A stretch of 5,226 bases of DNA, from the IMG/VR virus record IMGVR_UViG_3300029623_000256; one strand, 5' to 3'. The notes under the pieces were generated by a model. The model was not told where the DNA came from, did no database searches, and saw nothing but the letters and a program-made list of their open reading frames with translations. Made by a program: the position numbers and the translations under genes. The DNA is from a virus (Duplodnaviria; Heunggongvirae; Uroviricota; Caudoviricetes). How positions within the stretch are numbered: the stretch's first letter is position 1; each line of letters opens with the position of its first letter. Positions 2,670 to 5,226 of the stretch are shown piece after piece.

Positions 2670-2697
2670 TAGTAACTATTTGATAATTAACAGTTTA
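2660..2697. other. Probable prophage/chromosome junction (att core region) between the truncated ydfJ fragment and the integrase 3' end
   Basis: AT-rich segment tcattgatagtaactatttgataattaacagtttaatt lying where the host reading frame is lost and the integrase stop (TAA, complement of 2695-2697) begins. Phage att sites typically abut the integrase 3' end. The exact core cannot be defined without the other prophage end or an empty-site allele. Confidence 0.35.
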
Positions 2698-3960
2698 ATT
2701 TTGCGTCGCCTTGTTTTGGGGCATGGTTGGGGCAAACTCGCTTAGCTGTGTATTTAACAGGGCTACCTGTGCATTATTGTTTTCAGACATCCATTTCCCG
2801 TATACCTGAAACACCATTTGCGCATCTGCATGTCCCATCTGGTTTGCTATGAATGCCGGGTTGGCACCGGCTGTCAGCGACCAGCAGGCATAAGTATGTC
2901 TCGACTGATATGATTTGCGGTGGCGGAGGCCAGCGCGCTTTATCGCTGCGTCCCACATCTGCCTTATTGAGTCAACGGTAAAATGGTCACCATAATTTTT
3001 TACTCTCGCTGACACTTCAGGTTGAAAAACAAAGGTGCATTTTTGTTTTTCTGTTCTGCCAAACTCTCTGAGGTGAACGTCAATAATATGCTCTTTGCTC
3101 AGCCTCGTTANNNNNNNNNNGATTGCAGGCTTGATAAGGTGAATTACCCGATTGGTACCAGCCTGTGTTTTCGGTACCGTAAAACGATCTTTTGCTAAAT
3201 TTCTTCTGATCATCATTGTTCCATTTTTCAGATCTATGTCCTCCCAGCCAAGCGCGCACAGCTCACCAGGGCGAATGCCTGTATAAACAGAAACGCACCA
3301 TAAATTTTTGGCCTGCTGATTCCTGCAGGCGTCGATAAGACGGATAAATTCCTCCCGTGAAAGAGGATCAGGAATGGTTCTTGATTCCTTTAATGGCGAG
3401 ATCCCCTTAAACGGATTATCTGCCAGGTAACCGTTATCAACACCAAACTGGAACACGGCGTAAAGATTTGTCATGTAATTATTTACGGTGACAGCCGATC
3501 TCCCCGGTTGCGTAACAATATAATTACTTTTGGGGATCTGGTATCCAGTAAGTAACTCTTTACGTACCGCCAGCAATTTTTCTTTATTAATCGACGATGC
3601 AAGATTTTTTTCACCGATTATGCTCAGAATATTTTTGATGACGGCACGGTACGTGTTGAGTGACGTTTTTGCGACTTCCGTTTCTTTCAGTGCCAGAAAT
3701 TTTTCAGCCAGTTCCTTTATGGTTAAATCTTGTCGGGCCTCACCAAATTTTTCCAGATTGTGTGAGGAGGGAAACTGTTTTGCATAGTCGAAAACACCAG
3801 TTTTTATTGCGTAACAAACAGAGGCGCGCAGCTCACCTGCAATGCGCCTGTTTTTTGCCGTGTCAGGAACCCCCAGATTTTCTCTGACTCTTACACCTTT
3901 ATAAACAAACCAGATACGCAATTTCCCTCCATGGTTTTCCACGCCTGTCGGATATTTCAT
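2695..3960 (-). CDS. int: Prophage site-specific tyrosine recombinase (lambdoid, Qin-site-type integrase)
   Basis: A 421-aa product beginning MKYPTGVENHGGKLRIWFVYKGVRVRENL (arm-binding N-terminal domain typical of phage integrases). The C-terminal region has tyrosine-recombinase box motifs: GIRPGEL, SRHTYACW, MGHAD and a candidate catalytic Tyr in QVYGKW. The start at ATG 3960 has a purine-rich AGAGAAG stretch upstream; the ORF-track start at 3975 has no ribosome-binding site. The CDS contains a 10-nt N run (3111-3120), so 4 codons are unknown. Confidence 0.9.
   Translation of the reverse strand: MKYPTGVENHGGKLRIWFVYKGVRVRENLGVPDTAKNRRIAGELRASVCYAIKTGVFDYAKQFPSSHNLEKFGEARQDLTIKELAEKFLALKETEVAKTSLNTYRAVIKNILSIIGEKNLASSINKEKLLAVRKELLTGYQIPKSNYIVTQPGRSAVTVNNYMTNLYAVFQFGVDNGYLADNPFKGISPLKESRTIPDPLSREEFIRLIDACRNQQAKNLWCVSVYTGIRPGELCALGWEDIDLKNGTMMIRRNLAKDRFTVPKTQAGTNRVIHLIKPAIXXXXTRLSKEHIIDVHLREFGRTEKQKCTFVFQPEVSARVKNYGDHFTVDSIRQMWDAAIKRAGLRHRKSYQSRHTYACWSLTAGANPAFIANQMGHADAQMVFQVYGKWMSENNNAQVALLNTQLSEFAPTMPQNKATQN
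3111..3120. other. Run of 10 ambiguous bases (N) inside the integrase gene
   Basis: Literal n characters. The integrase frame is maintained across the run. Confidence 0.97.
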
Positions 3961-3994
3961 TTCAGCTTCTCTCATTGGTTAGTGTGGCTTTTAG

Positions 3995-4246
3995 TCAAGT
4001 AAGATGGCGTCTTGGTCTTGCTAATGCCTGGCGCTCAATCCAGCGGTCAATTTCTTCCAGGTTGTAAAAGCATGGGCTGTTATCCCATGGCATACAGTCA
4101 TGGGCGACATGCTTATACTCTCTTCCTTCCATAAACGATTTTTCCCTGGCTTTTTTTAGCGTTCCCTTTTTTATTCCTTTCAGTGCAATTAGCTGTTCTT
4201 CGGATACCCATTTACCGGGAGAGACAATCATGACTACTTCGCTCAT
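3995..4246 (-). CDS. xis: Excisionase (lambda Xis-like winged-helix recombination directionality factor)
   Basis: An 83-aa basic protein encoded immediately upstream of int on the same strand, with a 34-nt gap. The segment KKGTLKKAREKSFMEGREYKHVAHD resembles the lambda Xis region ending DGREYLFHESA. An AAGAG purine-rich site precedes ATG 4246. Confidence 0.7.
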   Translation of the reverse strand: MSEVVMIVSPGKWVSEEQLIALKGIKKGTLKKAREKSFMEGREYKHVAHDCMPWDNSPCFYNLEEIDRWIERQALARPRRHLT

Positions 4247-4315
4247 TGCTTTTATCTCTTACTTCAGATGAGCGCCGGTTGCAGAATACCAGTTACAACC
4301 GGCGATGGTTGAACA

Positions 4316-5226
4316 TTAAAAATCAGCCTGACTCGGGATCAGTTTTTGCCAGATAGCTGAAACGTATTTTGCCTGGTAACGGGCGTCATCAAGTGCATTG
4401 TGGCGCTCACCGTCGAATGGAATATCCGTTCTGGCATCGAAGTTCAGGGTTTTTCCCAGCTCAACGATTGTGCGCACATCGCGATCGTTGCAATAACGCC
4501 ACGGGCAGGGGATCCCCTGCCGTTCGTATGAACGGCGTAAAATCACGTTGTCGAAGTTGGCTCCATTTCCCCAGACCTGAACAAAAAATTCACCGGAGTT
4601 TTCGTCGATAAATTCCCGCAATTGCAGTAGTGCATCATCTAACGGGATTTCATCGGTCAGAATGGCAGATTGCGCCTCGCGTGATTGCTTAAGCCACCAT
4701 TTAATGACGTCACGATCAATGACTCCGCCAGCAGTATCCAGATCGATGGTCTTGCTAAATTCCGGCCCCATCTCTCCGGTTTCGGGATCAAAGAATTTAC
4801 CGCCAATAGAGTTGATTGGCGCATCAGGATTTGTTCCCATCGTTTCAAGGTCGATCATCAGATGGTGCCACACTCTGCTGGTGGATGTGATAACGTGATG
4901 ACCGTTCACCGCAATTAAGGAATCTGCCGTCTCGCCAGTTTCATTATCGCTGGCGTGGTCCTGAGCGCTGCCAGCATTCTCCTTGTGTGGATGTTCAGCG
5001 CCTTCCATTTCCTCCGGATCATTTTCCTGAACTTCAGCCTGATTCTCTTCATCGAATGTTTCCTGGTATGTTGCGTCGCCCATCACCGCACCACAATCAG
5101 GGCAGTTGCCGCCGCCGGTCTGACCACAGGCGGTGCAGACTTTTTCCGCTTCCTGTTGCGCTACTGGCTCAGGTTGTTTCGTTTCTGGCTCGTTTTGTAA
5201 CGCATTTGGGCTGTTTTGTTCCGCTT
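4316..5226 (-). CDS. Prophage exonuclease with a C-terminal DEDDh (DnaQ-like) 3'-5' exonuclease domain, preceded by an acidic linker and a CxxC-x7-CxxC zinc ribbon; the 5' end lies beyond the right window edge
   Basis: The three DEDDh motifs are visible: Exo I MIDLETMG, Exo [13 protein letters not shown], Exo [16 protein letters not shown]. The ORF-track start at 5086 is a GTG, and the same frame stays open upstream to the window edge (...[48 protein letters not shown]...), so the gene is 5'-truncated by the window. The stop is TAA, complement of 4316-4318. Confidence 0.85.

Follow-up and report, generated by a model that had tools for sequence, protein, structure and literature searches.

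RecET is the workhorse of recombineering. Full-length RecE improves linear-linear recombination, and the function of the N-terminal ~560 residues of RecE is not known (PMC11611040). Lambdoid phages can also carry DnaQ-like 3'-5' nucleases, often near int, as described by Zheng et al. (2025; PMC12315714). According to the same study, phages without a recombination system of their own rely on Chi and RecBCD, and a 'Tritos' class has a nuclease and many Chi sites and is without an annealase, an SSB or an anti-RecBCD protein. Related nucleases have been studied in defence: EcD, an E. coli DexA homologue encoded on a plasmid, digests 5hmC DNA, cleaves the DNA of T4 while sparing unmodified DNA and gives protection against this phage, and bacterial homologues of DexA come most often from Escherichia (Kang et al., 2025; PMC12153337). 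Here we describe an 824-aa prophage protein that is an uncharacterised variant of RecE. It is very common, it is catalogued and it was partly noted in 2025 (PMC12315714); what is new here is the explicit junction of the swap, together with the matrix of modules and a candidate Rad52-like third head.

The DNA analysed (the window, 5,226 nt) carries rspA and rspB, followed by the left end of a lambdoid prophage. The prophage end that adjoins rspB is int, which encodes a tyrosine integrase with an Arm-DNA-binding domain by Pfam (2695-3975, minus strand). Next come xis, an excisionase gene of the DUF1233, xisR type (3995-4246, minus strand; Pfam E 2.5e-30), and the 3' part of the exonuclease gene (4316-5226, minus strand), which covers residues 523-824 plus the stop codon and matches WP_021538002.1 and the protein P0124 of our collection. 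Because of runs of N at 1247-1286 (40 bases) and 3111-3120 (10 bases), rspA and the integrase gene are partly masked, and the translations show X at these places. Translation of 4316-5224 on the minus strand gave 302 open codons with the stop codon at 4316-4318, and the frame leaves the right edge of the window, in agreement with a sequence-only reading made before this analysis. That reading had also put xis directly after the nuclease gene; this was confirmed, with 69 bases separating the exonuclease stop codon from the xis start. The stretch 3900-5226 is present at 100% identity in nine complete E. coli genomes. At the identical locus of E. coli SCU-125, the complete gene has 2475 nt, encodes 824 aa and is annotated 'exonuclease'; P0124 is identical to this product, and NCBI names the gene product 'exonuclease' or '3'-5' exoribonuclease' (WP_021538002.1). 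A search with the window fragment as the query returned near-identical partial proteins only.

The host element is a Qin/mEp460-type lambdoid prophage integrated beside rspB. In K-12, the same site (rspB-ynfP-intQ) is occupied by the cryptic prophage Qin, and the K-12 pseudogene ydfE (L004 5079-5999) corresponds to the first 257 residues of the present gene family, with 68% identity. Because Qin shares the site and its ydfE fragment belongs to this gene family, the window shows the left end of Qin in its intact form, and by sequence comparison the 824-aa gene is the intact counterpart of ydfE. The SCU-125 prophage (L001/L009; NZ_CP051700.1 674300-718350) is about 44 kb long. Its tape-measure gene is frameshifted and its gpJ is split by IS903B (L009 13371-15870, 18273-22818 and 27400-30849), and this prophage is probably defective. 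The sitABCD iron/manganese transporter genes lie just past its tail-fibre genes.

The full-length protein has four parts, namely YdfE_N (residues 1-~205), YdfE_C (~248-340), a RecE-type zinc ribbon with an acidic linker (479-626) and a DEDDh domain (642-814). The two scaffold domains, YdfE_N (PF27430) and YdfE_C (PF27432), are both present according to precomputed Pfam matches on the identical protein P0124, and the family is already catalogued as PHROG 2082 and under the Pfam names YdfE_N/YdfE_C. We regard the identity and the architecture of the protein as secure, with very little room for doubt. The sequence-only reading had pointed to a zinc-ribbon-like motif at about 5093-5137 and a strongly acidic linker in the same frame, and both are present. 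The putative zinc ribbon, CTAC-x7-CPDC (C552/C555/C563/C566; 5090-5137, minus strand), is kept in Rac RecE (CNAC...CPDC) and gave a weak NCBIfam zinc-ribbon match. The linker (4922-5065, minus strand) is a low-complexity segment of 48 aa with 17 D/E and one K; Rac RecE shares it, and the two proteins part at its C-terminal end, the divergence junction described below. No SSAP (Rad52/RecT/ERF) fold or profile match was found in residues 1-497.

Outside the window, residues 386-435 (L001 about 16587-16736) form a small, confidently modelled beta-hairpin/helix domain with the motif ERxGPFYF...GRANKL...EEYxARKNGTY. This mini-domain has disordered linkers on either side, is invariant in the DEDDh and Rad52-like families and is missing in K-12 RecE. 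Shorter forms of the protein are also common: a 526-528-aa form begins near residue 296 (PHROG 20376; P0015, P0027 and P0043 have 528 aa). P0242 (527 aa) is a deletion form in which the scaffold passes straight into the DEDDh domain without the Exo I motif, and forms of this type are presumably inactive.

The C-terminal ~200 aa had been read as a DEDDh exonuclease, and the Pfam domain search agrees. The match to PF16473 (Rv2179c-like; residues 642-814 of the full-length protein; 4349-4867, minus strand) has an E value of 3.2e-64 and spans residues 120-292 of the fragment and the whole profile (positions 1-177 of 177), with 216 bits against a cut-off of 27. The catalytic residues are intact. 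On the minus strand, they are encoded by the codons for D647 (4850-4852), E649 (4844-4846), D747 (4550-4552), H797 (4400-4402) and D802 (4385-4387), and they align with D7, E9, D119, H186 and D191 of T4 DexA as the Exo I (DxE), Exo II (D) and Exo III (Hx4D) motifs. All five are also conserved among homologues, and T4 DexA (8KEL) was the only solved structure found by the PDB sequence search. In three pairwise comparisons, the pN/pS of the nuclease domain was 0.19-0.25, and the domain is therefore under purifying selection. We conclude that the C-terminal domain is, as predicted from its sequence, a DEDDh 3'-5' exonuclease domain of the DexA/Rv2179c-like subfamily.

The sequence-only reading had suggested, with reserve, that the linker and zinc ribbon resemble a central segment of Rac RecE, and BLASTP and blastn proved this right. 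In BLASTP against K-12 Rac RecE, residues 263-627 align with RecE 278-592 (E 2e-61). The match is near-identical between residues 479-626 and RecE 458-591 (in-window part 4913-5226, minus strand), a stretch that contains both the zinc ribbon and the linker, and weak between residues 263-476 and RecE 278-455. At the DNA level, blastn of the RecE-shared module gave 78% identity over 442 nt. The similarity stops at 'ETGE(T/V)AD', at the end of the linker and just ahead of either nuclease domain. Past this junction, the 824-aa protein goes on with PF16473, whereas in RecE the PD-(D/E)XK domain PF12684 follows (RecE residues 615-850). Pfam detected no match to PF12684 in the 824-aa protein, against E 4e-28 for RecE itself, and no match to PF06630. 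The RecE equivalog model NF007259 scored 275 bits against a cut-off of 1269, and only residues 241-626 matched. The idea of a RecE-like N-terminal scaffold carrying a different nuclease thus holds for the middle (263-627) and for the clean swap at the linker; it does not hold for residues 1-240, which are YdfE_N and not RecE-like. Homology of YdfE_N to the PF06630 domain of RecE was considered and was not supported (hhalign probability 4%). The opposite outcome, a short, common and characterised exonuclease without a RecE-like region, applies in so far as the family is common and catalogued; however, the protein has 824 aa and a RecE-like middle, and no biochemical characterisation of it was found.

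The junction can also be followed between sister prophages. A sibling prophage at the same rspB site (EC21Z-048; L005 7417-9873) encodes a RecE-type N-terminus and middle, the shared module and the DEDDh domain, and its xis and DEDDh domain are near-identical to those of the window. Compared with the 824-aa gene, the first 476 residues are highly divergent (pN 0.44-0.61), whereas the last 350 are about 95% identical, and this contrast places a sharp mosaic boundary inside the gene. To map the modules more widely, we used local phmmer and confirmed the assignments with Pfam. YdfE_N is joined to DEDDh in the 824-aa protein of the window and to PD-(D/E)XK in P0252 and P0306; PF06630 is joined to PD-(D/E)XK in RecE and to DEDDh in P0258, P0349 and P0372. 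When the N-terminal 497 residues were compared with 1.84 billion representative proteins, only 184 clusters matched.

A further large group carries YdfE_N and YdfE_C followed by a C-terminal region of ~280 aa without a Pfam match. These nuclease-less proteins (~120 members; P0253 and P0391-P0507; L003 8001-10412) have about 740-800 aa, belong to PHROG 2489, occur in Enterobacter, Klebsiella, Kosakonia and Pantoea and are named 'exodeoxyribonuclease VIII' by NCBI. In the structure model, the ~280-residue third head resembles a Rad52/Mgm101-type annealase with a long coiled coil behind it, and its consensus carries the motif KKSLTDAxKKALSxLGF. Weak Rad52_Rad22 matches were obtained for six of seven members (best E 0.0027), and the model matched phage Rad52-like, SSAP and ERF proteins in BFVD, the named matches having E values of 5e-10 to 5e-3. 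The profile of the third head gave no match among PDB sequences, and the Rad52 relationship is visible by fold comparison alone. From these results, and above all from the predicted structure, we infer that the third head belongs to the annealases of the Rad52 superfamily rather than to the nucleases. In Kosakonia, the third-head gene is located after kilR and ahead of a Gp157-family gene. Two N-terminal types, YdfE_N and PF06630, would then combine with three heads, PD-(D/E)XK, DEDDh and a predicted Rad52-like one. PF06630 ('Exonuc_VIII') covers residues 2-178 of RecE (L002 6790-9387), is non-catalytic and is also found on DEDDh-headed proteins; it is probably because PF06630 spans a non-catalytic domain that the 'exodeoxyribonuclease VIII' label has come to stand on three enzymatically different proteins.

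The sequence-only reading had found no annealase gene between the nuclease gene and xis, and the upstream check as far as the repressor was likewise without recT, bet or erf. In SCU-125, the interval from the repressor to the exonuclease gene contains only kil, a dicB fragment, sieB, ydfB and a DUF1391 gene, with no recT, bet or erf gene and no room for one. The order repressor ... dicB-ydfD-exonuclease-xis-int was found in two other prophages and in the viable phage mEp460_ev081. In all of these, the interval from the repressor to int is free of annealase genes, and the same is true of the viable relatives mEp460 and Tritos. Inside the exonuclease gene lies a Chi site, GCTGGTGG (4877-4884, plus strand), one of the six top-strand Chi sites of the prophage. 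The SCU-125 prophage has these six and two on the bottom strand, where about one per strand is expected. All of its Chi sites lie between the exonuclease gene and the right lysis/cos end, with none in the 24-kb structural region; the same pattern has been reported for lambdoid phages that lack an anti-RecBCD function.

DNA of the DEDDh domain was detected in 4067 of 5426 complete E. coli genomes (75%), with up to seven copies per genome, and DNA of the recE nuclease domain in 1736 of the 5426 (32%). Full-length copies with 80-87% identity are present in mEp460_ev081, Evi, Tritos, HannyBb and PhiR42_1 and in PPompW prophage records. Some of the PPompW prophage records with a full-length copy also contain an adjacent Stx2a phage.

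Our favoured explanation, to which we assign a probability of roughly 45%, is that the protein acts as a DNA-end 3'-5' exonuclease serving host RecBCD/Chi recombination. After induction, the gene would be transcribed from pL along with kil and dicB, and the scaffold would deliver the exonuclease to phage DNA ends or to replication and recombination intermediates, the same destinations to which it would bring the nuclease of RecE or the predicted annealase. There, the DEDDh domain would remove nucleotides from 3' ends; 3' tails trimmed to near-blunt could then be loaded by RecBCD, which would act at the phage Chi sites. Alternatively, the enzyme may expose 5' tails or remove 3' flaps. A role in phage DNA-end processing is favoured because the same scaffold, in the same operon position, carries the RecE nuclease or the predicted annealase in sister proteins, and the phage itself probably depends on host RecBCD/RecA, since it lacks both an annealase and a RecBCD inhibitor and has an excess of Chi sites in the correct orientation. 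Several published observations speak against such a role. DnaQ-type 3'-5' exonucleases usually lower recombination in E. coli, and DnaQ-type genes near int were judged probably not to be members of Rec modules, single-gene 'modules' being suspect, as stated by Zheng et al. (PMC12315714); in addition, one E. coli homologue of DexA that has been characterised serves defence rather than recombination (PMC12153337). Our literature search found no paper on a RecE-scaffold fusion or on the function or biochemistry of this protein.

The main rival, which we hold to be rather unlikely, is anti-phage defence, in which the DexA-like domain would digest superinfecting phage DNA, for example that of 5hmC T-even phages, in an HREX-like manner as EcD does. 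It draws on T4 DexA as the sole PDB sequence relative, on the precedent of an E. coli DexA homologue that protects against T4 (PMC12153337), on the position of the gene next to int, where accessory genes often sit, and on the up to seven copies per genome. However, the loss of the DexA D90 tetramer contact that defines EcD was not seen, as D719 is kept. The DexA 5hmC-recognition residues W152 and D169 align with C767 and F784; in this gapped region of the alignment, W764 and D785 lie three and one positions off. The exonuclease gene has no PADLOC match and lies within the repressed early-left operon. Three promoter-like sites were counted against 7.2 in shuffled sequence, so that a promoter of its own does not rise above chance, a result that is uninformative on expression in the lysogen. 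Defence also leaves the fusion to a scaffold common to RecE and the Rad52-like annealase unexplained. Another reading is an exoribonuclease or oligonucleotide degrader that would act on RNA or small nucleotide signals, for example in RNA turnover or in the removal of defence second messengers. The name of PF16473 goes back to Rv2179c of M. tuberculosis, which has been described as a 3'-5' exoribonuclease, and many copies carry the NCBI name '3'-5' exoribonuclease'; the scaffold partners, however, are DNA recombination enzymes, the closest characterised and structurally solved sequence relative, T4 DexA, is a DNA exonuclease, and no gene of the locus indicates RNA or signalling, and we consider this role improbable. 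The frameshifted tape-measure gene and the IS903B insertion of the SCU-125 prophage, the IS2-cut ydfE fragment that alone is retained in K-12 and the many truncated variants, including the 528-aa forms and the P0242 deletion, would fit a functionless, decaying mosaic relic of prophage recombination. Against this, the 824-aa frame runs through without interruption, the catalytic residues are conserved, the pN/pS values of the nuclease domain are low (0.19-0.25) and full-length copies occur in the named phage isolates mEp460_ev081, Evi, Tritos, HannyBb and PhiR42_1, which makes a relic very unlikely.

These comparisons indicate that part of the RecE N-terminal region is a conserved mobile scaffold that has been joined to nucleases of opposite polarity and apparently to an annealase too. 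The role of the scaffold is directly testable, because the natural scaffold carries different heads. The gene and its wide spread (75% of complete genomes, against 32% for the recE nuclease domain) also suggest that DNA-end processing without an annealase of the phage's own takes place in many E. coli prophages. A systematic misannotation is exposed as well, in which proteins with three different enzymatic activities all bear one name. Only tentatively do we extend this to a wider proposal: the RecE/YdfE N-terminal region might be a general delivery platform of enterobacterial lambdoid phages, to which enzymes for DNA ends can be fitted in exchange for one another, be it an exonuclease of 5'-3' or of 3'-5' polarity or a Rad52-like annealase. 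The annealase-headed form, with its hundreds of 'exodeoxyribonuclease VIII' proteins, would then be an unrecognised class of phage recombinase, and the DEDDh form a RecBCD/Chi-assisting, annealase-free strategy that is wider in E. coli than RecET.

Compared with Rac RecE, the 824-aa protein is likewise a large early-left-operon protein of a lambdoid prophage, and its catalytic domain is joined at the identical point, after the linker. The two differ in the catalytic domain, which is the 5'-3' PD-(D/E)XK domain PF12684 in RecE and the DEDDh domain PF16473, with an expected 3'-5' polarity, in the 824-aa protein. They also differ at the N-terminus, which is PF06630 in RecE and YdfE_N plus the extra mini-domain (386-435) here, and in their neighbours: recE has its partner recT adjacent, whereas the 824-aa gene has no adjacent recT. 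K-12 ydfE is the same gene at the same chromosomal site (rspB-int) and is the namesake of Pfam YdfE_N and YdfE_C; in contrast to the intact gene, it is an N-terminal fragment alone, cut by IS2E, and has lost the zinc ribbon, the linker, the exonuclease domain and xis.

DexA and EcD share with the protein the DEDDh subfamily, and the five catalytic residues are aligned in the case of DexA. DexA (227 aa) and EcD (short by its numbering) are apparently single-domain proteins, whereas here the domain makes up the last quarter of a scaffold protein of 824 aa; the numbering of EcD (HAK9828821.1), which puts A78 where DexA has D90, is not the one that simply truncating the 824-aa protein would give. 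Relative to Zheng et al., the available text of that study does not describe the fusion to a RecE scaffold and gives no Rad52-like identity for the 'RecE-2' proteins, which it says are without a nuclease domain (PMC12315714). As for the Tritos-type phages, Tritos carries a full-length copy with 80% identity, and the SCU-125 prophage shows the pattern of that class.
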